Shown here one piece after another: positions 20,880 to 51,722 of a stretch of DNA of 64,000 nucleotides. How positions within the stretch are numbered: the first letter of the stretch is position 1; the number at the start of each line of letters is the position of its first letter. The notes under the pieces are model-generated. The model worked only from the letters and a program-made list of their open reading frames with translations. It searched no databases and was not told the origin of the DNA. A program made the translations under genes and the position numbers. The DNA is from an uncultured virus (IMG/VR IMGVR_UViG_3300033156_000724) (lineage: Duplodnaviria > Heunggongvirae > Uroviricota > Caudoviricetes), in the IMG/VR virus record IMGVR_UViG_3300033156_000724. One strand, 5' to 3'.

Positions 20880-21258
20880 TTTTTTTGTATATACCCTTTT
20901 CTTTAATCAGATAATCATTCACCATATCAAATCGAATTTTTTCATCGGTATCGCAAATCATGTCGAGCAGCGTGGCCCACCTATTAGCAACTGCGAACCG
21001 TTTTCGTTCTTCGGACAAAGTGTTTTGAAGCATATGGATTGTTGTATTTAAAGTTTCGGTTCTAAGTTTCAATACCTTGGTTGCTTTTTTATGATCAGGC
21101 ATACTTATAAATACAGAGTAAATCCCGATGCAACAAAAACCCAATATCGCTACGATAGTTGCCAGAATTGCAGCATTCGCAATGAATGTAATTCGTTTTT
21201 TGTAAGTCTCAGCTCTTGTTAAATAGCTCATATTATCATCTCCTTTTCGGCCATTCAA
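20869..21258 (-). CDS. Membrane-anchored hypothetical protein
   Basis: One hydrophobic segment followed by a coiled coil. Confidence 0.5.
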   Translation of the reverse strand: MNGRKGDDNMSYLTRAETYKKRITFIANAAILATIVAILGFCCIGIYSVFISMPDHKKATKVLKLRTETLNTTIHMLQNTLSEERKRFAVANRWATLLDMICDTDEKIRFDMVNDYLIKEKGIYKKNEN

Positions 21259-23296
21259 AATATGTTGCCGGGCACCCTGATGGAGGTAGTGCCGGCGAGC
21301 ATAATATTAATGTTTCGCGGCTTCTGGTAACTGCAACATAAAACATTCTACGTATTGCATCTTGATTATTTTTTTCCATATATGCCGCCCTGCTAAGATC
21401 CGGAAATACAACAACACAGTCTGCCTCTCCCCCTTTCACCGAATGGACAGTTCCAATAATAAGTTTCGGTTTTTTGCGCAAAGTATCAGCTCCACAATAT
21501 TTAAGAACAGACATAGGATAATTTAAACTATTCATCCTGGATTTTACAACGTTATTTTTAAGCCATTGTATATCTCTGCTTAATGCAGCATTAACAGCAG
21601 CTGGCGATAATATATCATTAAGAACTTCACGAGTAGTGTGAAGACCCATTGCATGTTCATCAACCGCCTTTTCCAAAACTGCTAAAGCTTTCTTTCCTTT
21701 TTTCTTGATCAGGCCGGTTTCTCCAACTTTAATAAACCTGGCCCACTTTAAAAATTGCGGAACACTCCAATAAGCATCATCAGATTTATCAAGAAAATTT
21801 ATAAGTAAATTGATAGAGGATACTCCGTTTTGTCTGTAGAATGGATTCCAATCATATCTTTGCAATCGATATGGATTATGAAATGGGATACCCTTAGCTC
21901 GTAATAAGTGCTTTAACGGTTCAAGCATATAGGAACATGATGCCAAAAACATAACATTTTTATCTTGTTTTATATATTGAAGAGCAAGCTCCAAAACTCC
22001 ATCTGGAGCTTTGAAATTATCATTATGATAAATAACTTCACCAGGAACCGGATCAAGATTATCATCCATGCGAGCCCTATATTCTTTTGGTTCCCTGATA
22101 GTAACTTTTGAGATTATTTTATTGGCAACCTTTAAAACCGTTTCTGGAACTCTCCAACTTTGTTTTAATACCGTTTTAAATTCTTTTGATATGGGCGGAT
22201 TAATAAGAGATTTAACATCAGCGCCTATCCATTCATATAATGTTTGATCATCATCAGCGCACATAACAAACCACTCCATCGCTGCGCCCCATGATCTGAT
22301 CAGTTTAAATTGCACTGGTGTGAAGTCTTGGGCTTCATCTAAAAACATAACAGCAGGATTATTAGGAGCAATTGGAAACTCCTCGATTGCATTTTCAATT
22401 AAATCTTCAAAATCAACAACATTAAGTTCTTTTTTGAATCCATCCCATGCTTTCTTAAAACTTCTAAGGCTAACCCTCCATGTACTTTCTGGAATCATCT
22501 TGGCTTTCAAAATCTGGATTTCAGACAAAACTTTATCACCGTTATTTTGTGGATTAAAACAATCATCATATTCATCTGCTGACTTCCCGCTCCCTGATAA
22601 TAACCAACGAGGATTTTCAGTATTCCATTCTTTAATATGCTTAATTGCAAGGTCCGGCTGGCCAAACGCTCGATAACATAAACTATGAAGAGTGCCTACG
22701 TTTCGTTCATCAACCTTAATATCCCTAGAAGCAATTTCTTTGGCCGCTGCCCTGGTAAATGATGCAACCATAACTTTATCATGACCGTATTTTTCAATTG
22801 CTCGGGGAACATGCCGGCGGGCTAGTACTCGGGTTTTGCCTGTGTTATGAACAATGAATTCATTAGCTACATAATTATGATACGGAGAAGCCATCGCCAC
22901 AGCAAAGGTCGGTCCTTTACCAACATACTCAATGCGTTTAATGGTATCTTTAGCAGGAAAAACACATCCATCATAAACATTAACAACACTCCCGGGTTTT
23001 AAATTGGCTAACTCAACAAATTCACCCGGAGTTTTAAATGGATGATCTATCGTTGTTGTTATTGATCTGCCGGATATTGTAGTTGTTTTATATAATTTTT
23101 GAATTTTGCTGTATGAAATATATAAAATATCATGGGGTCCGATTAACTCACCCTGCAATGATAATAACTGTTTAGGAATAGTCATACAGTTAATTTTAAA
23201 GTATGCCATTTCTATTGTATATGGTCTTCCGCTGATATTTAAAATAGTATCAACAGCCAAACATCCTGGCGGACCGAATATACGGTATTCTTTCAT
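21236..23296 (-). CDS. UvrD/Rep-like SF1 helicase containing a mini-intein
   Basis: Split Walker A GPPG|TGKT, SFTRAAA, DEAQD, DDDQ, TVHSVKGGE, YVAVTRS. Confidence 0.9.
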   Translation of the reverse strand: MKEYRIFGPPGCLAVDTILNISGRPYTIEMAYFKINCMTIPKQLLSLQGELIGPHDILYISYSKIQKLYKTTTISGRSITTTIDHPFKTPGEFVELANLKPGSVVNVYDGCVFPAKDTIKRIEYVGKGPTFAVAMASPYHNYVANEFIVHNTGKTRVLARRHVPRAIEKYGHDKVMVASFTRAAAKEIASRDIKVDERNVGTLHSLCYRAFGQPDLAIKHIKEWNTENPRWLLSGSGKSADEYDDCFNPQNNGDKVLSEIQILKAKMIPESTWRVSLRSFKKAWDGFKKELNVVDFEDLIENAIEEFPIAPNNPAVMFLDEAQDFTPVQFKLIRSWGAAMEWFVMCADDDQTLYEWIGADVKSLINPPISKEFKTVLKQSWRVPETVLKVANKIISKVTIREPKEYRARMDDNLDPVPGEVIYHNDNFKAPDGVLELALQYIKQDKNVMFLASCSYMLEPLKHLLRAKGIPFHNPYRLQRYDWNPFYRQNGVSSINLLINFLDKSDDAYWSVPQFLKWARFIKVGETGLIKKKGKKALAVLEKAVDEHAMGLHTTREVLNDILSPAAVNAALSRDIQWLKNNVVKSRMNSLNYPMSVLKYCGADTLRKKPKLIIGTVHSVKGGEADCVVVFPDLSRAAYMEKNNQDAIRRMFYVAVTRSRETLILCSPALPPSGCPATYFEWPKRR
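22844..23263 (-). mobile_element. Mini-intein (Hint only, 140 aa)
   Basis: Starts CLAVDT, has block B TIDHPF, ends NEFIVHN followed by Thr; no endonuclease domain. Confidence 0.9.
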
Positions 23297-25468: not shown

Positions 25469-25528
25469 TCCTATCGTTTTTAGTTGGTCTGCACTACTTT
25501 TTGGCGTTAGAGTCCAACGTTGTTGCCA
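25469..25528 (-). repeat. Degenerate attC-like site
   Basis: Similar to the 26279/29091 family (ctttttggcgttagagtc); cores eroded. Confidence 0.5.
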
Positions 25529-25738
25529 CAAACCATTCACGCCACACTTCAGTTATCTGCCAGAACATAGCTCTAATATTTGTAAATATCATGCGAGCAT
25601 TCTTACGTTTGTAATGTTTTACAGCCGACATAAAAAAAGCCAGCGCACCATTGATGTGAAACCACACCAGGAAGTATTTAGCTTTAGGATTTCTCGACAT
25701 TTTCCTAAACACAAGATAATATGTTTTAGTGATAAGAT

Positions 25739-25834
25739 TCATAATGTCTGAACTCACCAGTGGGCAGGAAACTCAAAATGTCGATTTACTCCGATAGCCG
25801 ACCCTGCCCATCTGCGTGCAGCGCCTGGTTATCA
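25739..25834 (-). repeat. Long attC-like site
   Basis: tcataat...tgggcagg/cctgccca inner stem...ggttatc. Confidence 0.7.
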
Positions 25835-26033
25835 AAATATCGTTTTTCAGTTTTCTATTTTGCAATTTTCAATGTCTGATATGGTCCTATGCCAATGTCG
25901 GAATCATAATACATCGGATAAATATACCATCCGTCTGATTCTCGGCATATCCCGCCATATTTCAGATGCGTATACCATCCAGATTCTTCTTTTCTCCATT
26001 CAAAATGACTGCCACTCATAATCTAAATTCCTT

Positions 26034-26091
26034 TTATAACCACATTAGTTTAGCAGGCGGCTATTCGCTCCGCTGGAACGCTTTGTTATGC
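26034..26091 (-). repeat. attC site
   Basis: ttataac...gttatgc, 58 bp imperfect palindrome. Confidence 0.8.
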
Positions 26092-26278
26092 TATCCTCTC
26101 AATCGCCTTAGCTAACGGCAACCATTTCGATACACGTCCCCCACATTTGGCGCATATATATCCGTGATCGTCTGTATACACTTTTCCATATTTTTTACAT
26201 GCGGGGTTGTCCAGGTTGCAATACCTGCCTCCAGGCTTCTCAAATTTTATTTTGTTTTTTTTTCATTTTTTCCTCAAA

Positions 26279-26339
26279 GCATAAAACTTAGCTGACCTGC
26301 GGCTGCTTTTTACCATCAGAGTCGAGCAACTGGTTGTGC
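26279..26339 (-). repeat. attC site
   Basis: gcataaaac ttagctgacc...gtcgagcaactg gttgtgc; ORF 26288-26548 reads into it (HNQLLDSD). Confidence 0.8.
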
Positions 26340-27194
26340 TGTATATGTATATTATCTTCCAAATCCAAGCCACATTTCTTGCAGGAATTGTCAATTCCAT
26401 TATTTACATAGTAATGGGCAAAGGTTTTTTCGAGCAAGCTTATCCTTTTCTCGTTTTTTGTTGGTGTGTCAGGATAGCAAACATGACAAGAAACTTTATA
26501 TTCTGTCCCGCATTTTTTACATATTACACCCATAATTACTCCTTTCACTCGTCGGCCGCCACATTGTTTATAAAAGTTTAAGCTCGTTCGGCCATACTAG
26601 GCATTTATGATTCCCCATATTATATCTTACATCTGGCTTTATATCAGTGTAAATAATATATGCAGCTACATGCTTACTATCTATTGATGATTTTATTATT
26701 TTTTCTACTGTAGCATTACCCAAATAATCATGGACAACCCTATCACCAATTTTAAACTTTTCCGCTTTTTTCATTTTTTTCTTTAAGTTTAGCAATTACA
26801 AGGCCAACGGCATAATCATTAACCCATCTGGGGTCATCCATGAATGCCATGACTGTCGCTCGGTCACGATTAAGATCATACAAAATCCCCTCGGCAGGTT
26901 GTTTTATAAACTCCTCTATGTCTGCCTCTTTTGGTCCGTCCAATGTCATAAAAACAATTTTACCTTCTTTTTCTTTTTGAAGGACCAACTCTTTTAATTT
27001 CTCTTTATCAGTCATGGTTCATCCCCTTATCGCTATCAATTTAACTGAAGAAATATCCTTCACTTTACATGTACAGCTTTGTTGTTTTAAAGAATAAGCG
27101 TCTTCCGCTTGGTTCCATGCCCATGATTGGGCAGGTGGAATCTTAGCTCTTTTACAATATTTCATTTTCCATCGCCATTTGTACATATTTACCC

Positions 27195-27245
27195 CTCTAA
27201 TCAGCCGCCGTGCTCTTTTCGGTCAGCTGCATTGCTTGATTATGC
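27195..27245 (-). repeat. Truncated attC-like site
   Basis: cagccg...cggtcagctgcattgcttgattatgc. Confidence 0.6.
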
Positions 27246-27423
27246 TTTTTAGCAGAAAACCTATGAATATAAGTATCGCCTCCAGTATATGTTATCCTAC
27301 AATCTTCTCTTCGATCTCTGTGCATTGCCCTATGACGTGTAATTCCAAGATAGTGAAAACTTTTTTTACAGGTATGGCAATAACAATTTTTAAACCTCGT
27401 CACTTTCATTTTACCCTTTTGAA

Positions 27424-27478
27424 GCATAACAGATTAAGTCAGCAACGTTTTTCAATCTGCCAGGACAACTGATTATCT
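27424..27478 (-). repeat. attC-like site
   Basis: gcataac...gtcagca/tgccaggac...attatct. Confidence 0.65.
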
Positions 27479-27727
27479 GTCTCATCTTTCACCAATTCTG
27501 GTTTACCGATAAAAAGTGCTGCACTTCTAAAAGCATCAAAACATTGATCATGTACGCCGTCTTCGTCATTGGCCCAAATAATGATTCCTTTCAATAATGC
27601 TTCAATATGGTTTTTAGCTTCTTGTTCCACATTGTAGTGTGGACAGTTAGGGTGATGTTGTGTAAGTAACAACACATTATCACGTGCCCAATTTTTACAT
27701 TCGCAATCTATCATATTGCTCCTTCCC

Positions 27728-27849
27728 CGATAACGATTGAATTAAGCGATACGCCCACAAATCGGGGATACCAAATCATAGCCAAGCGGATCGGGCTTCA
27801 TGTCTTTGCAGCACGGATTTCTCACATCTGCTTTAACGGGTTGGTATCG
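27728..27849 (-). repeat. Long attC-like site
   Basis: cgataac gattgaattaagc...gctttaacgggtt ggtatcg. Confidence 0.6.
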
Positions 27850-28092
27850 CCAACCCGTTTGTGTTTGATACCAATCACACATTCTTGTGTTCCCATAACA
27901 GCGCATGCAAAACTTAGAGTCTATGCCATTGCATATTGGACAACCCTTTTTCCTTTTGTCTTCTGATAATGATTTCATTTTTTACCTGTTTGTTTTTTTT
28001 GTTATACTGTTTTTATATTTTTAAAACTTCTCGCATAAGGCCATGTTTTTCACATATTTCTCGGCACCTTAAAAAATGAGTGGTTAAGTCCA

Positions 28093-28440
28093 TCATTTCT
28101 GTAGCACCATTTCTGTAGCACGGCCGCCTGTAATTTCTTTTGATGTTTTTATTAACATCGCAAGCGTTTCAACAAAATCCTTATTATGCACTTTTTTGCC
28201 AGCTATTAATGCTCCTTCCAACGGCTCTTTATAATCCCGTCCACTGAACACAGGGGTTATACCCGATGTTCTTTGTTGCCAAAGACGGTTAGCTTCCATG
28301 CCGTCTTTTGATATTGGCCCTTGCGCGCCGCATGAAACACATTTTATTGCTTTCCACGGTTTGCCTTTTGTTGTTGATAAAAGTGTTAGTTTCAGATTCT
28401 CGGTTTCTCCGCAAAAAGGACATTTTACCAAATGATCCAC
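28093..28440 (-). CDS. Lar-family (restriction alleviation-like) zinc-ribbon protein reading through an eroded attC
   Basis: KCPFCG...IKCVSCGAQGP...ANRLWQQR; internal ttccaac...gttatac at 28216-28262. Confidence 0.65.
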   Translation of the reverse strand: MDHLVKCPFCGETENLKLTLLSTTKGKPWKAIKCVSCGAQGPISKDGMEANRLWQQRTSGITPVFSGRDYKEPLEGALIAGKKVHNKDFVETLAMLIKTSKEITGGRATEMVLQK

Positions 28441-28457
28441 TTTTTATTTCCTCCAGG

Positions 28458-28516
28458 ATATAATATACTTAGATTAGCCGCCCATTCTTTGAGTCAGATA
28501 GATTTACTTGTTAGTT
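28458..28516 (-). repeat. attC site
   Basis: atataat...gttagtt, 59 bp. Confidence 0.65.
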
Positions 28517-28667
28517 TTTTTGCTTCTTTATAATCATGCCGTAGGCCCACACATCGAACCGTGCCTTTTTGATCTTCTATATATTTTCTTTGGCGATGAG
28601 AATAATCCCCGTAAATCATTTTTCTTATTTTTTTTGATTTCTTGCCATTCATCTTTGTCTCCTTAAA

Positions 28668-28718
28668 AACTAACGTTTAATTAAGCAGCTTTTGTCTGCC
28701 TGAATTTCTTGGTTATGT
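28668..28718 (-). repeat. attC site
   Basis: aactaac...aattaagcag/ctgcctgaatt...gttatgt. Confidence 0.8.
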
Positions 28719-28794
28719 GTCGCCCCCACTCTGGAATCAAACCAGTAGGCTGAAGACTAGGACAGCCAGCCCGCCCATCAGGGATCAGGAGGGC
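28719..28794 (-). ncRNA. ORF-less cassette with tRNA-like fold
   Basis: Minus strand: GCCCUC/GGGGGC terminal stem, CUGG-UUUGAUU-CCAG T-like arm, GGCUG/CAGCC stem; bounded by two attC sites. Confidence 0.4.
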
Positions 28795-28854
28795 ACATAA
28801 CACTAAACTGAGCCGCCGAAGTTTTTATTGATCGCCCCCAGTGACTTGTTGGAA
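28795..28854 (-). repeat. attC site
   Basis: acataac...gttggaa, 60 bp. Confidence 0.8.
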
Positions 28855-29090
28855 GGAAATTTTTGGTATATTAATTTCCTTTATAGTTTTTTTTGCTAAA
28901 TCGATTTCATAAAGATGACCAACATAACTTTCTGGCTCAAAATTAGAAACCGACTGTTCTCTTTCCCAAAGTAAAATTGCTGCCTGTTTTGGCGATGAAA
29001 CAACTTTTTGAGTTACTGGCATATTTTTTATGCCAGTAAAATAATGAGACATTAAAATAATAAATAATAGTATTTTCATAACAAATTTCC

Positions 29091-29151
29091 TTCCAACAAT
29101 TTAGCTGACCGATGCTACTTTTTGGTGTCAGAATCTAGCAGCTTGTTATCT
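29091..29151 (-). repeat. attC site
   Basis: ttccaac aatttagctgacc...tctagcagctt gttatct. Confidence 0.8.
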
Positions 29152-30842
29152 GTCTTCGGTATTTTTACTGTGGGCATAGGAATTCGTGGACATTTAATAG
29201 CTGGTTCCTTGTAATTACATCCCCATCGAACACAATGAGAAGAGCCAAAAATGTCAGCAGTGTCAAAATATAGCCGATGCCCAAAAATTTTACATAATAT
29301 ATTCACAACAAACTCCTTTATGTATGAATCAGCGTTGAGTGTTCATCCGCCGGACCGGCTTGTTAAGTGTTTTATAATTATTAAGTAAAACTGTTGAACA
29401 TTTTGTGCCACGTTGAACACTCGATTGCACGGTAACACCCTCAACAGCTAAATCCCTATCTCGAATAGAGGCTAAAATATGCTCTAATGTCGCGGATATT
29501 ATTAAGGTTCCGTCATTATGGACAAGTTCCGCATAGATGGTATTTGGTCTCAGCTGACCATGTTCGTTTCCATCCATTCTAATATTTTGTAAATGATATA
29601 TTTCCATTTTTTTCTTCTTTCTTTGATTCCGGTGCTATGATTTTAGAATAACGAATATAATTCTCATCAATATTCACTTCCACTATTATAAAACCTGGAA
29701 TAGTAGTTTGAATTATTTTTTTTATCATAGCAGTCTTATCAGTTGACTTTGATCCACTTATTGAGACTGTAATAGTTTTTTCCCAAATATCTTGATTGAT
29801 AATCATAAATTTTGCTTCTATATAATTCAATAGATCCTGAACATCTTTGTTTGGCATGTCCAATTTGGGATTTATTTCTTTTATGTATTCAAAAAAATCA
29901 CGCCTGTCTTCTTCTGTTAAAAAATTCATATTTCCCCCTTTTCCGCTATCCCGACAACATGGAAATCAGCAATCTTCTATCTTTGGTTTTGGCAGATTTC
30001 CAACATTATCTAATTCGGCGGCCAGCTTATGAAAATAAATTGCACACATATCACCGTAATCATCAACAGGACTGCCGTCCTCGTCAAGAATATTACTAAA
30101 TTCTTCCGGGTTTTCGGAGTATCTCCTTGCCCATTCGTTAAAAATAATAGCCATTCTTTTGTGAGTAATGCTTGTTGTTGGTGGTGCCTTTGGCGCATCG
30201 GGCTTTACCGCGTTTGCTGGTCTTACATTACTTGCTTTTTTCATAGTGATTACCTCCAACGATTATTTATTATTAGATTCCCAGTGAGTCACTTCAACAT
30301 AAGCCTCGTCATGTGTATCAATATCCCACATAGGCTTTCCAATTACATCATTCATCCCTAAAAACTCCGCTTCAATTTCTTCTGTAGAAGAAACACTTCC
30401 AAACCGCCAATAATTTACACGGCACCGTGTTTTTTGACCAACGCTGGGCAACTTTTCTTCAACTGAAATCATAATATATCCCTCCGATATTTACCTTTTT
30501 TGTTATATTTTATCCCAAAGCTCATCAGGCAGTCATATATTATTGTCTTTTTTTTCAAAAGCGCTCCCAGCAGTAAAAACAAGCTCAATTTCCTGATCTT
30601 CAATAGACCTTAGAAAGGCTATAGTTTTATATCCTTCTTCTTGCGCTTCAATTTCTCCAGGTAAAATATTTCTATATCGTTCAATTAGATTATCTTTCAT
30701 TTTTACTTTCATACTACCCTCTCTTCAGGATAGATATCTTTTCGTTTCCACTTTTATTGCGCCGTAAAAGTTTACGTGTCATTATATCTTTCCGTCGTAT
30801 GCTTTTTGGCGGCGCCACCTCACATACACGCCGGCTTAAGAA

Positions 30843-30900
30843 GACTAACGTAGAGTTGGAGCTGTAAGCATAACGAATCAGCTGAAACGGTTTGTTATAA
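30843..30900 (-). repeat. attC site
   Basis: gactaac...gagctg/cagctg...gttataa. Confidence 0.75.
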
Positions 30901-31106
30901 ACCCTCATAACGCCAAGGATTCTGTAAACAAATTTGCCACCGACCACCGTTTTTAATTATATTTAACGCTGCTTCTTTAGTTTTTGGATTGTGCTTCAAT
31001 CCTTTAACACTATCAAATCTGTCCAATTTACAATTTATGCCCCTATTAGTATTTATTGGGCCAGAACAAAATTTCTTACAAGGTATCATAATAGCCCCCT
31101 TTGGGT

Positions 31107-31186
31107 TTATAACGTTAAACTGACTTGATCATTTGCAATTTCCGAATTATAATATGCTTGTTATGTGCAAATGTAATTTGTTATGC
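31107..31186 (-). repeat. attC-like site
   Basis: ttataac...catttgca/tgcaaatg...gttatgc. Confidence 0.7.
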
Positions 31187-31315
31187 GGTGTTGACCCTGG
31201 ATCATATTTTTTATTCAACGTTTTCGTGCTGTAGGTAGCATTGACATTATAATGAATGCTCTTACCGATATTTTCATATCAGACCTTCACACTTCCAGCG
31301 ATTTCAAAGAAAGCC

Positions 31316-31362
31316 GCATAACGTTTGCCTTCACCTGACCAGACCGAAAAACTTTGTTATCC
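31316..31362 (-). repeat. Truncated attC-like site
   Basis: gcataac...gttatcc; ccgcataac is complementary to gttatgcgg at 31180. Confidence 0.6.
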
Positions 31363-32017
31363 ACCTGTTAATTTACTGCTGCATCATATCCCCCTGTATA
31401 AATTAACAGAGTCTTCTAAGAACAATCGAACCAGTCGGTGTTTCGTCCCCTGCGGAAGAGTTGTCTTTATTGCGGAAAAAATTTTATTTGCATCTTCATT
31501 GTACAGGGTTTGTGCTTCTTCCAAAGTGTCCGTTTGTGGTAAGTCTGTGTTTATTTCAATCACTATCCCATTGATAGATTCCTCTTTTCTTATCGGGTCT
31601 GCTTTATGTACAATAATTGTATGGTTCATAATTCCTCCGTAAAATAACAATTTTACCTTTTCCCAGTCAGTACACGTCTCAGTATCCTCATGCACATCTT
31701 TTTTGTGCAGTTCACACCATTTCCATTCACCCAACGGGTCGAGTTCGTGGTGTCTATCGCTGCAATGTTTACAATTATTGCAAAACTCTTTCATGTCATA
31801 ACCGCCCGCATCACAGGCTTATCCTATGTGTGTTGCTACTGCCTGATCTGTAATTTAAAATTTTGCGCCGGCATCCTAAAAAGATTTTCAAACATACCTT
31901 GATTTTCAACATCTTTGGGCCATTTCTGAAAATATACCTGTCCTTTTTTGATCATATGTACATGAATAGCTATGCTGTTTCTCTCAATTACCATTCCTGG
32001 TTTTATATTAATCATTT

Positions 32018-32404
32018 TCATTGTAGGCCCCTAACGTCTGGACTCACGGGCGGTGGTCTTTTGCCATCCCCTGGCTTGTTATGTATTTTGCGTAGCATTA
32101 ATTCAAGCCTCGATAACGCATTCCATGCTAAGTGCGCTTGATGCAATAACCCAGAATCTTTGTCTTGATCCTCATGGCGTTCAGCGAGAAGATGACGCCA
32201 GAGTGCGTCTGTGTATCGAATAAAGCCATTCTCTACGCTTTGCCACCCGCCACGAGAGTATTTAATTGCTCCAAAAGTCCCTACTTTGGCAACCTCCGTT
32301 AAGGCTAAAGAAAAATCAGAAAGAACACCTGCAAGGACTTTACCAGCATCCAGCTTTGCGCCTTGTTCGTGTTGATTTAAACCATTTGGATCTTGTTCAT
32401 GCAT
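32018..32404 (-). CDS. dATP/dGTP diphosphohydrolase domain protein (DUF5664-like)
   Basis: GAKLDAGK, FGAIKY..GGW, YTDALWRH, DSGLLH.AHLAWNAL. Confidence 0.8.
   Translation of the reverse strand: MHEQDPNGLNQHEQGAKLDAGKVLAGVLSDFSLALTEVAKVGTFGAIKYSRGGWQSVENGFIRYTDALWRHLLAERHEDQDKDSGLLHQAHLAWNALSRLELMLRKIHNKPGDGKRPPPVSPDVRGLQ
32029..32084 (-). repeat. attC site
   Basis: ccctaac...gttatgt, overlapping the gene 3' end (HNKPGDG). Confidence 0.7.
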
Positions 32405-32418
32405 ATTGTTCCTTTATG

Positions 32419-32479
32419 GTATAACGGTTAAGCTGACTTGCCGCTGCTTTTTGTCGTCAAGTCCAGCGGCTTGTTAGCT
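32419..32479 (-). repeat. Canonical attC site
   Basis: Minus strand AGCTAAC-AAGCC-GCTGGAC...GTCAGC-TTAACC-GTTATAC; L'' is one base longer than L' (extrahelical G). Confidence 0.9.
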
Positions 32480-32648
32480 GCTTTAACCAATGTTTGCATA
32501 TCTTGCTCAATATCTCTTAAGGCAAATACAATTGCAATCCAACCGCAAACAAGCCTTAAAGCCGGGCCATCAAACTCAAACTTCCATCCGCCATATTTCC
32601 CGACACAAAAATAAAAAGTAAACCCATTCATTTTTTATCCTTTCAGCC

Positions 32649-32784
32649 AGCTAACGTCCTAATAACCTGCATGTAGGGCTTGCACACCCCTTAAAAGAGC
32701 ACTCCCACCCATCTTCCCCTGGCAATTATCGACTCTTACCGACAAGCCGACCCTACGCGTCAGAGTTTGTTTGATTGATTATAC
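32649..32784 (-). repeat. Long attC-like element, copy 1 of 3
   Basis: agctaac...gtagggcttg...caagccgaccctac...attatac; near-identical to 33020-33108 and similar to 36296-36382. Confidence 0.75.
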
Positions 32785-33019
32785 GTTTCTGCTTCATCAA
32801 CCCCCGGATCATCTTCTTGACATCATCCATACAGTCTATGTTGAACACACAGCGAGACGATGGCCAAAAGCAGTATTGACGCCATGCTCCATACCACTTG
32901 ATTTGCCCAAGCACGAGACCGGAAGACTTCGATAAAATATTCCATATTTCGGTTTTGCCGGTTTCTCCAACTTTATCAAATTCCATGTAACGGCTTTCAA
33001 TCATGTTCCCTCCTTAGAA

Positions 33020-33108
33020 ATATAACGTCCTAATAACTTGCATGTAGGGCTTGCACACCCCTTAAAAGAGCCCTCCCACCCGTCATCCCCTGGCAATTAT
33101 CGACTCTT
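33020..33108 (-). repeat. Long attC-like element, copy 2 (one arm lost)
   Basis: taacgtcctaataac.tgcatgtagggcttgcacaccccttaaaagagc...ggcaattatcgactctt shared with copy 1. Confidence 0.75.
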
Positions 33109-33262
33109 CCTCAACCTGAACGGTCACGGAAATCGTCAGAGTGTGTGTTTGTGTGCACACTGGACACTTCACATGTTTAATTACTTCCAAACCGAAGCAG
33201 GGCTTAATTTCGACTTCAAAACCCTGCATGCATCTGCCGCATGGGATGATTATTTTATACAC
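33083..33262 (-). CDS. Small zinc-ribbon protein (59 aa, not in the ORF track)
   Basis: GGAGG RBS and GTG start; MYKIIIPCGRC...KCPVCTQ. Confidence 0.55.
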   Translation of the reverse strand: MYKIIIPCGRCMQGFEVEIKPCFGLEVIKHVKCPVCTQTHTLTISVTVQVEEESIIARG

Positions 33263-33560
33263 CTACGCCTCCATTTGTTCACGAATTTTGGGATGAGCAA
33301 CTTTTAAGTGTCAAGTTAAGTACCTAATTACCCTCTATATTGTTATACAAACATATTGCCAAACAAAACCAAAGTACAACAACAAACCAATCACAAACAG
33401 CACTTAAATCTTTTTCAAGCAAATTTATAACAAGATTAGTAAGAGTTATAAATACACATAAAATAATTGCAGATATATATATATTCATATTTTTAAACTT
33501 CTCTGTAAAAAGTTGTGCAGTAGCTGCCTTAAACTCCGTTGTAAGGATTTATTAGCATTC

Positions 33561-34211
33561 CTACCTAAAATCTTTTGCTTTGATTTTGGCAATGACCCGT
33601 TCTCCTCTTCGATTAAACAATTCAACTTTTGGACGCATAACAAGCCCTTCAGGTAACATTTTTCGTAACTTCGATTCGTACCCACCTTTGACCATTGCAA
33701 CACCTTCAAGCAACGTGCCCTCACCAATAACGGGTACTGTCTTAATCATAAGCTTCTCACCGATATCCTTAACGTTGTGATGTTCAAGCCACATACCATT
33801 AATATTCACATCGAAAAGGATAAAACTAACGCCGTTTGAAATGTAATTGCCACCACCTTTTTGGATTTTGGCTCCATAACCTTCACCATACAAACATAAT
33901 GGAGGCAACTCATTAGTTATGAAGATTTCAGGATAAAAAAGTGCAGCAAGTTTATCAAGGAGGAATTTTGGAATATCTGCCCGGTCTGTTTTCCCGGCGA
34001 AAGTAACGTGTTCACCGTTCCACTTCACACGGATATTCGTGCCATCTACTTTCTCGGTAAATATCCATATATTATTCTTGAGATAGTCGAACTCAGGCTT
34101 TGCAAATTGACCTTCCAGTAATGTTTTATGCTTCGTCGCAGGATCACGTAAATATACTGTTTGAATTTTATGATACTCTTTCATTTTGTAATTTCTCCAT
34201 TTGTCAACCAC
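33561..34211 (-). CDS. RNA ligase (Rnl2-like nucleotidyltransferase)
   Basis: Motif I EKVDGTN, YGEGYG, FILFDV, EGLVMRP, AKIK. Confidence 0.85.
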   Translation of the reverse strand: MVDKWRNYKMKEYHKIQTVYLRDPATKHKTLLEGQFAKPEFDYLKNNIWIFTEKVDGTNIRVKWNGEHVTFAGKTDRADIPKFLLDKLAALFYPEIFITNELPPLCLYGEGYGAKIQKGGGNYISNGVSFILFDVNINGMWLEHHNVKDIGEKLMIKTVPVIGEGTLLEGVAMVKGGYESKLRKMLPEGLVMRPKVELFNRRGERVIAKIKAKDFR

Positions 34212-34213
34212 AA

Positions 34214-34684
34214 TTATTTATACAGTATCTCGGTCATTTCTTCATCTGCTGATTTTTTTATCTTTTCCACTCTTTCCTTTAACAACATCTTGGTTTTTTG
34301 TTGTTCTTTTTCATAAATTTCAGCAATTATTTCTTCCTCTGCTAATTTTTCTATCTTTTCCACTCTCGCCTTTAACATTCCTTCTAATAAAATTAGATAA
34401 TTGATAGAATAGCCGATCTTTTTGTCAATCATTGCGTCTGTTAACTTCTCAGGCGAACGATCTGACATTTCAACTAAATCTAACACTGAAACAATATGTT
34501 CTACCCACATACCGACCAGGGCTTTTTCTGGTGTCGTGTCTAATATTCTCGCCGCAATGTTAAAATTATGGTATCTATCACAACCCATCGCATATTCTTT
34601 AGCCTTTTCTGATAATACAGACCGGATTGATTCTATTCGGTCATCCACTATTTCATCAAACTGTGTATCGTATTTCATAAACAC
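34214..34684 (-). CDS. Phage nucleotide-modification-associated (MazG-like fold) protein
   Basis: LSEKAKEYA...DRYHNF...INYLILL. Confidence 0.5.
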   Translation of the reverse strand: MFMKYDTQFDEIVDDRIESIRSVLSEKAKEYAMGCDRYHNFNIAARILDTTPEKALVGMWVEHIVSVLDLVEMSDRSPEKLTDAMIDKKIGYSINYLILLEGMLKARVEKIEKLAEEEIIAEIYEKEQQKTKMLLKERVEKIKKSADEEMTEILYK

Positions 34685-34685
34685 C

Positions 34686-34761
34686 TCCTAACGCAAAGTT
34701 CACTTATCGGAAAGCCGACAAGGATAGTTTTTTGCCGTCAGAGTCGAGCGACTGATTATGC
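34686..34761 (-). repeat. attC site (possibly hybrid)
   Basis: tcctaac...gccgtcagagtcgagcgactg attatgc. Confidence 0.7.
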
Positions 34762-34959
34762 TGTTCCAATACCTTGATTCGCTTCTGTAGCAACATGTTT
34801 TCAGCTTCGAGATTGTTTATTTTAGCTTGTTGTTCATGCCGCTCATTTATTTCCATCTGTCGAGAAATCCATTCACATTCTTTAGGATTAAAACAATCTC
34901 TACCAATTACACCTCCACAACTGTTACATATCATAATCATTTCTCCTTTCCCCAAAAAG

Positions 34960-35014
34960 ACATAATATCTAAGCTGAACCACCGGTATCAGTCGGCTCAA
35001 GCGGCTGGTTAGAT
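34960..35014 (-). repeat. attC site
   Basis: acataat atctaagctga...ctcaagcggctg gttagat. Confidence 0.85.
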
Positions 35015-35226
35015 TTCATCCCCATAATCCTGCATATCACGTTCCCGTTCGGCTAATATGCATTGACTCACATGATAGGAATTATGAAGCTCCGCAAGTA
35101 GCCAATCGGGGGTATATTTAGGATTCACCCTCTTAAGAATTCTTTCAATACTATCTACAACAGATTTTGCCTGAGTCCGATGATACTTTCTTGCTGACTT
35201 TGCTCCCAAAATAACCTCCTTTAAAA

Positions 35227-35286
35227 ATCTAACGTCTTAGCTGACCTGCGGCGACTTTTGGCGTCCGCTCAAGCGGCTGGTTATAT
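35227..35286 (-). repeat. Canonical attC site
   Basis: atctaac gtcttagctga...ggcgac tttt ggcgtcc...tcaagcggctg gttatat. Confidence 0.9.
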
Positions 35287-35817
35287 AGGTAAGTTCACTG
35301 TTGATTTAACTTCATTACCCCAAACATCCCAGCCATCTCGCACTTGCCGTGCAAAGATATCGGCTCTATTCTCAGCTAAAGATTTTATCATCTCATAAAA
35401 TTTATTTGGTTTTTGGGAATGCTTAATATTTGGTGCTGAAAAAGCTAAAGGGATTAACGGTCGTTTTGGCCATAAATCAGGTTTTTCCTTATATCCAACC
35501 AATATGAATTCAACATTCCATCTAAAACCAAACAATGGCATCCCTGCAGATTTACCATAAGTTTTTTTCCATACACCTGTAACAAGGTGACTAAACCCCC
35601 ATGTCTCTAATACCTCTTTAGCATCAAAGAGATGCTTTTGGGTAGCCCACAAGAATAACCAACAATTGTCATCTGCAATACTATCTATAGGCAATGATTT
35701 GATTTGTTCTATGCTCATAGTTTTGTAATCCATTGTCACCTGTTTTGGCCGTACCTTGCGTGTAAGCTTCTTTACTGGCCAGGGAGGATCAACAACAATT
35801 AATCCATATTTTTTCAT
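35281..35817 (-). CDS. MT-A70 family adenine methyltransferase
   Basis: VDPPW, LFLWAT, HSQKP, DIFARQ.RDGWDVWGNE; stop codon lies inside the attC R'' core; start taken at MKKYG. Confidence 0.88.
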   Translation of the reverse strand: MKKYGLIVVDPPWPVKKLTRKVRPKQVTMDYKTMSIEQIKSLPIDSIADDNCWLFLWATQKHLFDAKEVLETWGFSHLVTGVWKKTYGKSAGMPLFGFRWNVEFILVGYKEKPDLWPKRPLIPLAFSAPNIKHSQKPNKFYEMIKSLAENRADIFARQVRDGWDVWGNEVKSTVNLPI

Positions 35818-35839
35818 AAGGTCTCCTATACGAAATGCC

Positions 35840-35897
35840 ATATAACATTTAGTTTAACAGGCAAGCTTTTCCGCTCTGCTGCAATGACTGGTTATAT
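35840..35897 (-). repeat. attC site
   Basis: atataac atttagtttaacagg...gttatat; similar to the 26034 site. Confidence 0.8.
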
Positions 35898-35956
35898 TTT
35901 TCCACTTCAAAATAGCTCTGCAATAGTTGCACACTTTATCCCCTCTACGTTTAGAT

Positions 35957-36015
35957 GAATAATATAAAGCTAACTTGTGCTGTCTTTTGGCGTCAAGTTG
36001 AGCGACTTGTTAGCA
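35957..36015 (-). repeat. attC site
   Basis: aagctaacttg...caagttgagcgactt gttagca; ORF ends ANKSLNLTPK. Confidence 0.8.
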
Positions 36016-36295
36016 ATTTTTGTGAGATCATCTAACACAGATAAATCATTATTTAGAAAGCGCGTGATTATGGTGGCAGGATCAATAGTACAACTATGTA
36101 CTAATTTATCGCTATTGCAATAAGGACAACTTGTCTTATGATCAAAATACGAAGCATGCCATTTTTTACAAGAACGGCAGCAATAGACAAAGGTTACGTG
36201 CATACTATAGTTATATTTCAATTTCATCCTAATAATCCTTTATGGTTATATTAATGATTTGGAAAACTTGAAAACTTCCACAACACCTCCTCCAA

Positions 36296-36382
36296 TAAGG
36301 TTTGCACACCCCTCAGAAAGGCACTCCCACCTGTCTTCCCCTGGCAATTACTGGACCCTACCGACAGCCCAACCCTATACAG
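36296..36382 (-). repeat. Long attC-like element, copy 3 (diverged, array-proximal)
   Basis: ttgcacacccct...cactcccacc..tcttcccctggcaatta...accgaca..c.accct. Confidence 0.65.
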
Positions 36383-36398: not shown

Positions 36399-36800
36399 TT
36401 ATAATTTCTCCAAAAAATTAAACTCCTTTAGATTGCTTGAGCAACAATCAATTAGCTCCTGTGTTGTTACAATCCCTCCATCTATACATTTCACCAAATC
36501 TTTTTTTGTTATTCGTTTACCGTATTTATTATAGTTTGCATATATAGTTTGTTTGGATTCAGAAATTCCGAAGTGCTCCCGAATTTCACGCTGTTTCCAT
36601 CTACCTTTTGTTAGCTTAATCATTGCTCTTAATCGTTCTCCTACAAACTTAGTAATTTTTATAAATAGCTCTTCTTTTTCAGAGTCCAGCATTTTCTCTG
36701 GATTTTTCATCATCATGCTCCTCGCTTGGCTGTGGCCCGATTTCTCTGGGAACCCGAAACGCAGAACGTGATGTTCTTTCATGGTTATCAAGAACAACAT
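36399..36800 (-). CDS. Hypothetical protein, possibly HTH (true start probably near 36716)
   Basis: KQREIREHFGISESK HTH-like segment. Confidence 0.45.
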   Translation of the reverse strand: MLFLITMKEHHVLRFGFPEKSGHSQARSMMMKNPEKMLDSEKEELFIKITKFVGERLRAMIKLTKGRWKQREIREHFGISESKQTIYANYNKYGKRITKKDLVKCIDGGIVTTQELIDCCSSNLKEFNFLEKL

Positions 36801-38412
36801 TAAACTTCTGATTTATACATCCCAACCTTCTAATCAAGGTTCCCAATTGTCTTTGTCGTATGTCAGCACCCTTTTTTATTTTAGTCCATAATGAAAAATT
36901 ATCTAAAAATATATACCAACACCCATTATGTATAAACGGCTGCTTATCAATAACAGCCTCATCTAATGTAAGCTTGTTGGAGCTTTCCAGATAATCTTCT
37001 ATCCAATATTTAACCACTCCCTTATCACTAACTTCCTCCCCTATTTCTCGAACATTTTCTTCTGCTAATATTAACAACTGTTGAATATGATTATCCCATT
37101 CTTTTGGTTTAAACCGGGTAATAATTTTACCTGTTGTAGCTGCAATTTTATTTCTAAACTGAGGTTGTGATGTAAAATGTTGGATTTTTAAGGTGATTTC
37201 TTCTACCTTGCCGTTATATTCAATATGAATTACATAATCCGGGTCTTCAGATAAATATTTCTCAATCTTAATAATCTTAACTCCCATCCGGATACTTACA
37301 TCTTTACGTAATTTTTCTGATGGGCTATCTTCTTCAGATGGATTTAATTCCTCAGATAATTGAAGATTTTTAATGTCCTGCTGAATTTCAAATGATTCGG
37401 AAATTGCGTCGTCTCTTGCATTGATAATTGTACGAGCATAATATTGAGTATTATTAAATTTTAGATCATGACCATGATATTCACGATGGGCTATTAAAAG
37501 ATCAACTATTTCTTGCGGTTTCCATTTTGCTCTGGCTGCAAACCCAGCCAGCGCCATATCGTAACCACTTGGGCTAGTATCATTTAAATCTCCTTGCCTC
37601 TGATTTTCCCATGTTGCCTGAAACTTTCCGAATATTGCCCACAACTGCGCGAACTTGGCTGGCGGCGGCTGGCGATTTTTTGCAAGAATAAATCTTTTGC
37701 CAGCCAGATTGATTTTACTCGAATCGGTTGAGCGGTTATCGTTTGTATCGTCAGGCAAAAATTCCTCAAGATCACCAGGATTATACCTCAGATCGTTAAA
37801 TTCTATTATTTTAACAATAACAGGATCTTTCTTGCAATTATAACTCTCCGGGGGCCGTAAGATTCTAACGAGATCTTGGACACTATCAATGCTCCATCCT
37901 TGTTGCATTGCAATAGTGTGAAAACAAAGTTTGATACGACGCAAAAACTTCATTGCACTGATACGATCTTCAGGAGTCTTGAGTTCCCACATTTCTTTGA
38001 ACACCCAATATGCCTGAAGGCCATGCCCAGAATGCACAACCACAGTTGGGTCAAACCCATGACCGTGGATAACGCTCATAGCGTCGTCTAATGTAGGCGG
38101 ATATCTTTTGCTTTTATGATGACCACAAGTTCCAAAATCAATATCAGCAAAGACAGCCGGCAATGCTATTACCGGCCTGCCCTTGCTTTCATCAAGATGA
38201 CAACGTTGATCTTTTTTGTATTTTTTACCCGATAAACCAACCTGAAAATATTGATCTCTCTTTGGGTTTTTTAAAATAAAATCAACAGCCTGATCGATAT
38301 CAGGCGTCCAAAAAGAACTGCCACCCCTTTTCTTCCCGGGTCTCCATATTAACAGGTGTGATCCATCAGGCTTATCATCATAAAGCAACCTGAAAAAATC
38401 ACAAAGATTCAT
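36679..38412 (-). CDS. RepB-type DNA primase / replication protein
   Basis: FADIDF, VVHSGHGLQAYW, RILRPPESYN. Confidence 0.8.
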   Translation of the reverse strand: MNLCDFFRLLYDDKPDGSHLLIWRPGKKRGGSSFWTPDIDQAVDFILKNPKRDQYFQVGLSGKKYKKDQRCHLDESKGRPVIALPAVFADIDFGTCGHHKSKRYPPTLDDAMSVIHGHGFDPTVVVHSGHGLQAYWVFKEMWELKTPEDRISAMKFLRRIKLCFHTIAMQQGWSIDSVQDLVRILRPPESYNCKKDPVIVKIIEFNDLRYNPGDLEEFLPDDTNDNRSTDSSKINLAGKRFILAKNRQPPPAKFAQLWAIFGKFQATWENQRQGDLNDTSPSGYDMALAGFAARAKWKPQEIVDLLIAHREYHGHDLKFNNTQYYARTIINARDDAISESFEIQQDIKNLQLSEELNPSEEDSPSEKLRKDVSIRMGVKIIKIEKYLSEDPDYVIHIEYNGKVEEITLKIQHFTSQPQFRNKIAATTGKIITRFKPKEWDNHIQQLLILAEENVREIGEEVSDKGVVKYWIEDYLESSNKLTLDEAVIDKQPFIHNGCWYIFLDNFSLWTKIKKGADIRQRQLGTLIRRLGCINQKFNVVLDNHERTSRSAFRVPREIGPQPSEEHDDEKSRENAGL

Positions 38413-38413
38413 A

Positions 38414-39139
38414 TCAGGCGCCAGTATCTTGTGTTAAATCATTTACAATCTCTTCAGCAGTCGCCTGAAGCATCGGAGCAATTTTTTCAGAATACTCTTT
38501 CCAGAAACCAGGATTCGGCACTGGCCCTGCTACACTGAATTTTGCTTTAGAAAACTTAACACCATCAGCATTCTTGTCTGGCTCCAACTCAATCCTGGTG
38601 ATTCTCTCATAAAAATTAATGCCATTGGAAGCAAGTCGTAGTAAATATTTCTTAGCTGAATTCAAACTTGTAGGTGGAAGATTTATCACATACGGAAGAG
38701 CCGCGTCCGGCATCACGATAAAAATAAACCTTCTTTCCCGGCAAGCCTGAGACCTGGTATTTGGAGCACTCCCAAATTCAGATAATGGACATTGCAAACA
38801 TAGTCCACCGGGCTCTCCTCTGCCGTGTATAAGATCCACAGATACACAGTCAGGGGGTGCACCCCCTCCAGATTCATCGTATGATATTGACCAATACACC
38901 CGTGCCGTAGCAGTATATACGATAATGCCCTCAATATGTTTGGCATCTTTCTCGCCGTCGATAGTATCATAAGTCCATATTTTCCCACCCCCGGCAGGTA
39001 TGCTAATTTTATCCAAATCCAACGGATTGATCTTAACATTTCCGAGATTTGCCTTGATGATTGAGGTAATATCAACGTTCATGGTTACTGCCGCATACTC
39101 CGTGGCTTCTGTTGCCACAACTACTTCTCTTTTTTCCAT
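38414..39139 (-). CDS. Putative ssDNA-binding protein
   Basis: PDCVSVD...CLQCPLSEFGS...ACRE, LPPTS; acidic tail; replication context. Confidence 0.55.
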   Translation of the reverse strand: MEKREVVVATEATEYAAVTMNVDITSIIKANLGNVKINPLDLDKISIPAGGGKIWTYDTIDGEKDAKHIEGIIVYTATARVYWSISYDESGGGAPPDCVSVDLIHGRGEPGGLCLQCPLSEFGSAPNTRSQACRERRFIFIVMPDAALPYVINLPPTSLNSAKKYLLRLASNGINFYERITRIELEPDKNADGVKFSKAKFSVAGPVPNPGFWKEYSEKIAPMLQATAEEIVNDLTQDTGA

Positions 39140-39154
39140 GTCCCATCCTCCGTG

Positions 39155-39562
39155 TTATTTGGTTCTGATTAAATTAAACTTCTCCGATGGTTCAATAACC
39201 TTAATTAAATGTGGGGGAAGCGAATCCCCCGCTCTTTCCACCTCTCTCACATATGCCGCAAACGCATTGGCGTTATAGTTTTCCTTGAGAAAGTCTTCAG
39301 CAATACCGTCCTCTTTCATGGCTCGTATCACATCGACACGGGTTTTACCATCCTTAAACTTAGGCCATATTTGAGATCGAACATACAAAGTTCCAAGACC
39401 ATCTAATGTCATTTTGCTCACGCCTGCCATCGACATCTGCTCCAACAATATTTGTTCCACCTTCGCTTTTGTGTTTTTAATTGATTTGATCTGTGCCTCA
39501 AGATCTTTTTGTTTTTTATCCAGTTCAGCGTACTGAACCATCATTGCTATATCAACGGTCAT
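39155..39562 (-). CDS. Coiled-coil phage replication-region protein
   Basis: N-terminal coiled coil, GTLYVRS; synteny. Confidence 0.5.
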   Translation of the reverse strand: MTVDIAMMVQYAELDKKQKDLEAQIKSIKNTKAKVEQILLEQMSMAGVSKMTLDGLGTLYVRSQIWPKFKDGKTRVDVIRAMKEDGIAEDFLKENYNANAFAAYVREVERAGDSLPPHLIKVIEPSEKFNLIRTK

Positions 39563-39614
39563 ATTATACCCCTCTTTATAATAAATTGATGCTGTTAATG
39601 GATTCTTGCTTTAT

Positions 39615-41015: not shown

Positions 41016-41032
41016 AATATATACTCCCCCAC

Positions 41033-41290: not shown

Positions 41291-41340
41291 ATTTTCATCC
41301 TTTCTGATTTTTCGATGAGGATATATTATTTTTGATACAT

Positions 41341-41360: not shown

Positions 41361-41407
41361 AATATGCATTTTTATTTAATAAGTATGAAAAATACCACGG
41401 AGGACCA

Positions 41408-51718: not shown

Positions 51719-51722
51719 ATAT

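Follow-up and report, generated by a model that had tools for sequence, protein, structure and literature searches.

A probable integron-type cassette array without an integrase in an uncultivated tailed phage

Integrons are seen as gene-capture devices of bacteria, and clusters of their attC sites in phages were reported only in 2023. Can a phage genome hold a whole array of genes in the integron format and, if so, which enzyme put it together? This question is raised by the viral record IMGVR_UViG_3300033156_000724 (IMG/VR; Caudoviricetes), of which we have analysed a stretch of 64,000 nucleotides, here called the window. On its minus strand, between a primase/polymerase-like gene and a gene for a UvrD-like helicase, about 11 kb (25478-36353) are taken up by 33 co-oriented small open reading frames (ORFs) and up to 23 sites of the attC type, as delimited from ORF tables, site models and by-eye reading, and a sixth of the phage window is in cassette format. 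An earlier reading of the bare sequence (the original prediction) had interpreted this region as an integron-like cassette array. Our work leaves little doubt that it is a real integron-type cassette array in a phage. It belongs to the clusters of attC sites lacking an integron integrase (CALINs), defined in PMC9892861 as at least two attC sites close together with no integron integrase nearby: 15 sites with E values of at most 0.056 lie within 10.3 kb, no IntI is encoded, and no intI gene adjoins the array as it does in a complete integron. Beyond this, we consider it rather likely that the array was built piecemeal by the integron integrase of the host, probably a member of the Desulfobacteraceae, in an uncultivated siphovirus-like phage, and that it has partly decayed.

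The cassette array and its attC-type sites

The ORFs, 43 to 216 amino acids long, were counted from 25494 to 36227 with the choice among overlapping frames made by hand; their number agrees with the about 35 that had been predicted, and PHROG and helicase matches confirm the two flanking genes. The units consist of a small gene ending in an attC-type site, two units contain no gene at all, and some runs of ORFs (e. g. 29329-30712 and 26568-27186) are devoid of any site. As had already been noticed, the ORFs often extend into the sites: at 14 of the 23 sites, the upstream ORF has its stop codon within the site, and the C-termini concerned include ..NKPLDLTTKSSGKSA, ..NQLLDSDGKKQPQVS, ..NKSLNLTPKDSTS and ..NQAMQLTEKSTAAD. 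The predicted number of about 25 sites proved to be an upper by-eye figure, as we count 23 by eye, 15 to 17 of them with the support of a model. Read on the minus strand, the element starts with xxxTAAC and ends with GTTAxxx. What had been described as palindromes of 50-135 bp are elements of 41-96 nt, and few of them fold beyond the level of shuffled sequences. In the alignment of the A-type sites, the R'' box is followed by 5 nt, GCTNGAC, a loop with CAAAAAG, GTCAGC, 6 nt and the R' box. The pair of L boxes, GCT-GAC with GTCAGC (alignment columns 14-20 with 45-50), is kept in eight to nine of nine rows, and one of its bases is bulged.

Two covariance models were used to define the sites. The first one, R1, was built from six window sites and three sites of other viral contigs; its 11 window matches at E values up to 0.02 comprise its six window seeds and five further sites, and they all lie within 25478-36015 on the minus strand. 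Since R1 is not independent of the window, bacterial copies of the site type were sought, and the second model, R2, contains ten attC sites from contigs of Desulfobacteraceae metagenome-assembled genomes (MAGs), all from source genomes that encode IntI, and none from the window. R2 recovers the 15 window sites mentioned above, all on the minus strand within 25739-36015, together with two matches of marginal score (E 1.1 and 1.6) that share this region and strand, and the coordinates of all 17 equal those drawn by eye; the other eight of the 25 matches listed (E 3.3-8.9) are scattered on both strands. The AAC core is present in 15 and the GTT core in 13 of these 17 model-defined sites. The predicted ends RYYYAAC and GTTRRRY, the latter given as the R' consensus in the available text of PMC9892861, hold up less well as complete 7-mers, which are found within one mismatch in only 10 and 11 of the 17 sites, respectively.

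The two sites that had been singled out for testing are the two best matches to R2. The best one (A5, 32419-32479; R2 62.5 bits, E 1.6e-12; R1 73.9 bits, being an R1 seed) has the complete layout R''-5 nt-L''(GCTGGAC)...L'(GTCAGC)-6 nt-R' that had been recognized before, except that the strand of the extrahelical base has to be corrected: the bulged G lies on the coding (top) strand and corresponds to a C on the bottom strand. The DNA fold of this site has -12.5 kcal/mol (z -3.5), a value that none of 200 shuffles attained. The other one (A2, 35227-35286; R2 49.5 bits) lies behind the gene of the MT-A70 methyltransferase. They are followed by A6 (26281-26339; 42.1 bits, E 1.7e-7), A7 (29091-29151; 33.4 bits), A1 (35957-36015; 32.1 bits, E 4.9e-5), which has a degenerate R' with ATT for GTT, A1b (35840-35897; 29.9 bits; R1 24.2 bits, not a seed), with a unit upstream that lacks an ORF, C1 (32029-32084; 29.1 bits, E 2.7e-4), which lies within the 3' end of the dNTP pyrophosphohydrolase gene, and S20 (28795-28854; 28.6 bits; R1 31.3 bits, not a seed). 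Lower R2 scores were obtained for A9 (27187-27245; 24.4 bits, E 0.004), with AAT in R'' and a degenerate R', A4 (34686-34761; 23.8 bits, E 0.0055), S29 (25739-25834; 23.7 bits), with 96 nt the longest site, S28 (26034-26091; 22.3 bits, E 0.013), A3 (34960-35014; 22.0 bits, E 0.015), S14 (31316-31362; 21.0 bits, E 0.027) and A11 (28668-28718; 19.7 bits, E 0.056), and the two marginal sites are C2 (30843-30900; 14.5 bits, E 1.1) and A12 (31107-31187; 13.8 bits, E 1.6 for 31107-31166).

Six sites complete the catalogue. S22 (28458-28516) was read by eye; it has ATT in R' and scores 13.1 bits with R1 (E 1). The last site of the array, A8 (25478-25518), is truncated and matches R1 over model positions 13-54 only (19.2 bits, E 0.02), and S13 (31796-31838) comes from by-eye reading, without model support. 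The remaining three are copies of a B-type repeat found by repeat search: B3 (32649-32731; 83 nt), which lacks model support and is also indicated by boundary pairing, B2 (33020-33102) and B1 (36278-36353), which is the first unit of the array, the latter two being assigned by eye only. As detected, this repeat is 86 nt long with copies at 32652-32737, 33023-33108 and 36274-36359 (identities of 95% and 63% to the reference copy); its coding strand is rich in G, it has neither a fold nor an Rfam match, and it occupies the position of an attC site. When the 20-54 kb arm was scanned rigidly for AAC...GTT boxes plus a perfect L pair of 6 bp, 17 candidates came up, most of them due to chance and only 32419-32479 being real. 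A pattern scan of the viral contigs led to 27 loci, of which three are real sites and 24 are fortuitous matches within unrelated genes.

Cassette boundaries and bacterial counterparts

In an integron array, the crossover takes place at G|TT of the R' box. The bases after this G therefore belong to the next cassette, and they pair with that cassette's own R''. We have measured this hybrid R' signature as the complementary run beyond the GTT/AAC core between the R' after one site and the R'' of the next one, using 21 sites drawn by structure. The runs with the next site are 0, 2, 4, 6, 3, 1, 2, 5, 2, 0, 2, 6, 8, 1, 9, 5, 7, 0, 0 and 2 nt. Runs of at least 5 nt are present in seven of the 20 adjacent pairs as compared to none of the 21 own-site (abutting) pairs, in which the runs have at most 4 nt, and two of 400 other pairs; the observed sum of runs was reached in none of 100000 permutations. 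At A2, the R' box GTTAGAT is complementary to the R'' box ATCTAAC of the next site, with a run of 6 nt beyond the core, and a run of the same length is formed by the R' of S14 (GTTATGCGG) and the R'' of the site that follows. For 8 nt beyond the core, the R'' of C2 can pair with the R' that precedes it; S22 has a run of 7 with the preceding R', and both A11 (5 and 7) and A12 (6 and 8) have runs on their two sides. At A7 (run of 9), the start of the following cassette is complementary to the next R'' over 17 nt, and this pair also stands out as a 17-nt inverted repeat with a 100% match (28846-28862 / 29083-29099). Even the B-type copy B3, with the 3' end GTTAGCTG, complements the R'' of 32419-32479. 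If a site is closed with the start of its own cassette, its DNA fold becomes better by 2.6-9.3 kcal/mol in eight of 17 sites; of the others, three gain 1.1-1.4 kcal/mol, five are unchanged and one becomes worse.

The same site type is present in bacteria that have integron integrases. A pattern scan covering one genome per species matched three contigs, two from Desulfobacteraceae MAGs and one of 3.9 kb that is labelled as an archaeon. The two MAGs (G007 and G008) carry five IntI genes over the TIGR02249 cut-off (372-442 bits), a cut-off that none of 14 control genomes reaches. In the G007 contig L042, a truncated intI lies on one strand and the cassettes lie on the other; the 3' sites of these cassettes score 31.4 and 29.3 bits with R1, and the cassettes show the same boundary signature as those of the phage. 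Compensatory changes are found in six of the nine stem pairs of the ten bacterial sites, and R2 matches all 26 genomes of the G007 family, the candidate host family, at E values up to 1e-4. The host of the phage is thus probably a sulfate-reducing member of the Desulfobacteraceae, as judged from the type of its sites. Taken together, the integron-cassette architecture of the original prediction has been substantiated by a bacterial, intI-linked site type, by the hybrid R' boundaries and by the insertion relative to two relatives that is described below. A further Desulfobacteraceae contig (L032) has a repeat of about 150 nt in two cassettes (7140-7290 and 8825-8975), and at 8208-8642 an N-terminal integrase fragment of 144 amino acids (SAM_4; integron integrase as the best family) is located between attC sites.

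Cargo, relatives and the surrounding phage genome

The recognisable cargo looks like counter-defence and nucleic-acid genes of phages, as far as family matches can tell. Encoded on the minus strand are an MT-A70 DNA methyltransferase (35281-35841; Pfam PF05063, 2.5e-28; PHROG 359), an RNA ligase (33561-34211; PF09414, 4.9e-17; PHROG 548), a dATP/dGTP pyrophosphohydrolase-like protein (32018-32404; PF18909, 6.3e-22; PHROGs 5033 and 801) and, with a weak match, a Lar-like restriction alleviation protein (28093-28440; PF14354 at 27.9 bits, just below the cut-off of 28.6; PHROG 599, 3.5e-5). In addition, there are a phrog_6802 protein and weak matches to DUF551 and DUF1660. The array gene 34214-34684 has a relative outside of any array in the phage L055; it contains a 49-nt direct repeat (34236-34284 / 34329-34377, 90% identical, 93 nt apart) that results in an internal repeat of the protein. 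The ORF 31384-31794 resembles an in-frame fusion: the homologue of its second half is a gene of its own (13908-14150) in the phage contig L001. No attC site lies behind that gene, whereas the site 31316-31362 follows the window copy. The GC content of the array (0.382) is that of the rest of the window (0.383-0.392), and a scan for consensus promoters gave 71 matches, about the level of shuffled sequences (56.6 +/- 8.1).

Related phages show what the locus looks like if it is empty. The distance from the stop of the primase gene to the start of the UvrD gene is 13.4 kb in the window, but only 3 nt in L001, which is part of a 92-kb record and has a primase that is 72% identical, and 132 nt in L061 (primase 69% identical), and neither of the two has an array between these genes. 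As judged from these alignments, the array region is an insertion relative to both of them. A near-identical record (G001) has 96% of the sampled words in common with the window, is 99% identical over the region and has the same array. Over 14 kb, the two differ by six small indels (24385, 28094-28107, 28261-28262, 28544-28559, 30727 and 36450-36453) but by no substitution and no cassette; among the indels are a tandem duplication of 14 nt where the Lar-like ORF ends and a stretch of 53 nt that only G001 has. G001 is thus the same phage without a cassette difference, and it does not allow a comparison at the level of cassettes. Sites of the same type are found in other viral records as well: six within 4 kb in G004, four in G005 (three, and one elsewhere) and two in G003, those of G004 and G005 forming smaller arrays that are likewise co-oriented. 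In G005, an MT-A70 cassette (33.5% identical over 191 amino acids) lies between two sites and adjoins a relative of the window ORF 34704-35000, in a gene order that differs from that of the window; in L025, an MT-A70 homologue forms a cassette at 3598-4161.

Rearranged versions of the region were sought among metagenome contigs of two marine runs that cover parts of it at 85-99% identity (shares of 0.07 and 0.05 of the stretch). In a contig from a marine-sediment metagenome (X1), position 28478 inside the site 28458-28516 and position 35233 are connected by 11 other letters, and the shorter side of the joint measures 83 nt; position 35233 is the G of the R' GTTAGAT in the site 35227-35286, as expected from the prediction that variation among relatives should break at the GTT cores. 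A 1214-nt contig (X2) breaks at 32418, one base outside of the site 32419-32479, and continues at 24759. The joints 22415|35464, 24163|35889, 29621|36401, 36005|29142, 34759|35967 and others were set aside, as they have sides of 20-36 nt and lie in or near repeats.

The window as a whole is the genome of a tailed phage. Genes for a tail tube protein, a tape measure protein, a baseplate hub and tail proteins with PKD domains lie on the plus strand at 4.4-20 kb, and a long minus-strand arm (20.5-54 kb) holds replication and accessory genes, among them those for the UvrD helicase, the primase/polymerase-like protein, an SNF2 helicase, an Xer-like tyrosine recombinase, a DnaN-like protein and ParB. 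Upstream of the array is the primase/polymerase-like gene (36679-38412, minus strand; PHROG 2478, 'DNA polymerase/primase'), and downstream the UvrD-like helicase gene (21236-23296, minus strand). In the latter, a mini-intein (22847-23263, minus strand) interrupts the P-loop (GPPG|C...139 aa...VHN|TGKT), which is an uninterrupted GPPGTGKT in L061 and L001. Compared with L001 (7066-16498), the replication segment 36679-41297 plus 21236-23296 (SNF2...primase, UvrD) is inverted relative to 41408-42483 plus the recombinase gene, and the Xer-like recombinase sits at one end of this rearranged block. A megablast search with 36400-46400 against the GenBank phage collection gave no match. ParB (53415-54335), the DnaN-like protein (50492-51772) and the Xer-like recombinase (42756-43727) occur together in the window, and this combination of genes suggests a plasmid-like prophage lifestyle.

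Assembly of the array and known systems

From the identity and co-orientation of the sites, their boundary signature, the missing integrase and the relatives without an array, we infer how, by which enzyme, where and when the array may have been assembled, and how its genes might be expressed and function. Each unit would be a promoter-less small gene, or no gene at all, that ends in an attC-type site, and the units would have been joined singly by an IntI-type tyrosine recombinase cutting at G|TT of R', so that each cassette starts with bases that pair with its own downstream R''. The enzyme would most likely be the integron integrase of the host, acting in trans on the phage DNA; as targets for insertion it could use the attC sites that the phage already has or secondary GTT sites. 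Between the inserted cassettes, genes resident in the phage would remain, and this would account for the stretches of several ORFs without a site. The genes might be expressed by read-through from the replication operon, as had been predicted; the promoter-like and terminator-like matches, being about as frequent as in shuffled sequences, speak neither for nor against this. Many sites may have decayed since the assembly, leaving an array that is partly a fossil. The phage-type cargo, the relatives of array genes in other phages and the even GC content favour assembly within phage lineages over a single capture, though they do not prove it.

Several observations weigh against this scenario. The bacterial sites of R2 were originally found with the phage-derived R1, and the reciprocal test is thus not fully independent. 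The GTT core is missing in four of the 17 model-defined sites (ATT in three, GGT in one), and the bulged L'' base, which may be G, C, T or A, is located on the coding strand, whereas in the paradigm of the class 1 attC sites a bulged G is found on the bottom strand. As single-stranded DNA, only two of 20 sites fold better than dinucleotide shuffles, i. e. 32419-32479 and 25739-25834 (z -2.0), with z values of -0.97 to +1.41 for the other sites tested, and most sites may therefore no longer work as folded substrates. The A-type sites of the window also have fewer stem pairs than the cleaner copies in the contigs L004, L020 and L030. Many sites thus look decayed and the array looks partly fossil, a feature that the original prediction had overlooked. 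In other viral arrays (L020 and L025), the boundary signature is weak, with a longest run of 4 nt in seven adjacent pairs, between which intervening sites may have been missed; moreover, the signature would outlast the en bloc capture of a bacterial array and is thus no proof of assembly in the phage. The prediction that breakpoints fall at GTT cores is not borne out by the joint 31660|27831 of the X2 contig, which lies inside ORFs, and several of the metagenome joints count for little, given their short sides and their location in repeats. Finally, the host assignment is drawn from the site type alone, and the cassette proteins 32428-32631, 26288-26548 and 35970-36227 were each found in none of the 26 host-family genomes, which are incomplete, so that these missing relatives are not evidence of absence.

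Which enzyme recombined the cassettes? An integron integrase above the TIGR02249 cut-off was found in none of five viral records, including the near-identical G001, and there is none in the window. Its sole tyrosine recombinase, the Xer-like protein (42756-43727, minus strand), could itself be a non-canonical cassette recombinase that built the array without IntI, and this idea receives some support from its best NCBIfam match, the model NF040815 for XerA / 'integron integrase' (109 bits, under the cut-off of 220), from its N-terminal SAM_4 domain, and from a 61% identical homologue in G005 that is encoded about 1.5 kb from the three-site array. Yet with TIGR02249 the protein reaches just 41.9 bits as compared to the cut-off of 265, and this match covers only residues 31-209, the N-terminal half. 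IntI proteins have an extra domain inserted in the catalytic part that is absent from Xer recombinases. Between residues 31-303 of the phage protein and residues 15-286 of XerD (1a0p), the alignment shows no net insertion (273 versus 272 residues); the best solved relative of the phage protein is XerA, and no IntI structure was matched. Family-model scores, structure alignment and the survey of homologues thus all identify it as an Xer-like enzyme rather than an integron integrase. Its homologues are rare (17 proteins, mostly 277-309 amino acids), an attC match is present within 10 kb at only one of 15 viral loci that encode one, G002 has the recombinase but no site, and in G003, whose genome is complete with terminal repeats, sites are present and a tyrosine recombinase is missing. 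In the window, the gene is 6.4 kb away from the array. Given the family scores, the missing insertion and the poor co-occurrence with sites, it is very unlikely that the phage enzyme is the cassette recombinase. Together with ParB, it may more simply be read as an enzyme for dimer resolution or lysogeny, and a host IntI acting in trans would be the simplest answer that fits the evidence.

It is also conceivable, with a probability that we regard as low, that a ready-made piece of a bacterial integron array was captured in one event of illegitimate recombination and has been decaying since then without being recombined. The weak folds of most sites and the lack of an IntI in the phage agree with such a capture, the boundary signature would have come along with the captured block, and temperate Vibrio phages with captured fragments of chromosomal integrons are described in the available text of PMC9892861. 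Against the capture of a bacterial block speak the phage-type cargo by PHROG (methyltransferase, RNA ligase, dNTP pyrophosphohydrolase, Lar-like and phrog_6802 proteins), the relatives outside of arrays that the phages L055 and L001 have for 34214-34684 and for the second half of 31384-31794, respectively, and a GC content that does not set the array apart from its phage surroundings; site types of at least two kinds (A and B) occur side by side in the array, other neighbours of the cassettes appear in metagenome contigs, and, as weak evidence, three cassette proteins were not found in the host-family genomes. That the repeats are regulatory elements of the phage, i. e. terminators, RNA processing sites or protein-binding sites between cistrons, would be in keeping with their location at gene ends, with the conservation of the A-type sequence including the loop, and with the weak folds, which suit a duplex protein-binding site. 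It would leave unexplained why a unit starts with bases that pair with its own distal box and not with the neighbouring site, and why the same sites are present in bacterial arrays beside intI; moreover, Rfam has no family match at E values up to 1 over 20000-55000, and the terminator-like matches are about at shuffle level (15 versus 11.3 +/- 3.3). We therefore regard this explanation as highly improbable. The metagenomic source and the repeats, which invite mis-joins, might finally point to an assembly chimera of a phage and a host chromosomal integron, but phage genes flank the array on both sides within the window, the cargo is of the phage type, the window has a uniform composition, the junctions are shared by G001 (perhaps not an independent sample), and two false joins would be required; the likelihood of such an artefact is close to nil.

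Returning to piecemeal assembly by a host IntI, the array might even be still at work, with host integrases inserting, excising and reordering cassettes during a plasmid-like lysogeny for which ParB and the Xer-like resolvase are present. We consider this possible but doubtful. With the same reserve, one may speculate that the phages of this lineage keep their counter-defence and accessory genes as integron cassettes, exchanging them both among themselves and with the integrons of their hosts. Should the array be active to this day, phage genomes would be shaped by integron integrases just as bacterial ones are, and a working array would be the mirror image of the bacterial integrons that store anti-phage defence. 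If all this is true, phages are a route and perhaps a source of cassettes, which bears on the question of cassette origin. The locus offers a test set for these ideas: one of its sites looks intact, others form a graded series of decay, and two relatives provide the 'empty' locus.

How does the array compare to known systems? PeSL (promoter-early stem-loop) modules shuffle small genes in T4-type phages; they carry a promoter and act via homologous recombination. As in these modules, small accessory phage genes are bounded here by repeated elements at the points of exchange; unlike them, the window sites are built of R and L boxes, show the hybrid signature at G|TT and match the sites of bacterial integrons. 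The chromosomal integrons of the Desulfobacteraceae (G007 and G008) resemble the phage array in site layout, in a similar loop and in the hybrid R' signature (L042), and models trained on either set find the other. The bacterial arrays differ in lying beside intI genes or fragments, in well-kept stems with compensatory changes and in a cargo of the bacterial type (acyltransferase, dehydrogenase and ankyrin-repeat proteins), whereas the phage array has weaker stems and a phage-type cargo. A possible route by which a host IntI might have brought a first cassette into a phage genome without attI is the integrase-driven insertion of cassettes outside att sites, as reported for bacterial genomes in the available text of a preprint (bioRxiv 10.1101/2022.09.11.507474).

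The closest precedent makes the array less novel than the original prediction had assumed, since attC clusters of phages have already been published. According to the available text of their study (PMC9892861), Qi, Rajabal, Ghaly, Tetu and Gillings (2023) screened 10,705 phage genomes and found integron parts in 21 of them, i. e. three complete integrons, one In0 element and 17 CALINs, and IntI1 recombined five of six phage-borne attC sites tested. Our literature search revealed no phage array described at this size or from this host group, which does not prove that there is none, and the Desulfobacteraceae are not among the hosts named in the available text of PMC9892861. The phage CALINs of that study and the array described here have in common co-oriented cassettes with attC sites in a phage without an integrase as well as a DNA methyltransferase cargo. 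They differ in that two to three sites are predicted per phage in the available rows of its supplementary Table S1, as compared to 15 model-supported and 23 by-eye sites over 11 kb in the window, and in the boundary signature, which is demonstrated statistically for the window array. This array is thus an unusually large member of the known class of phage CALINs.

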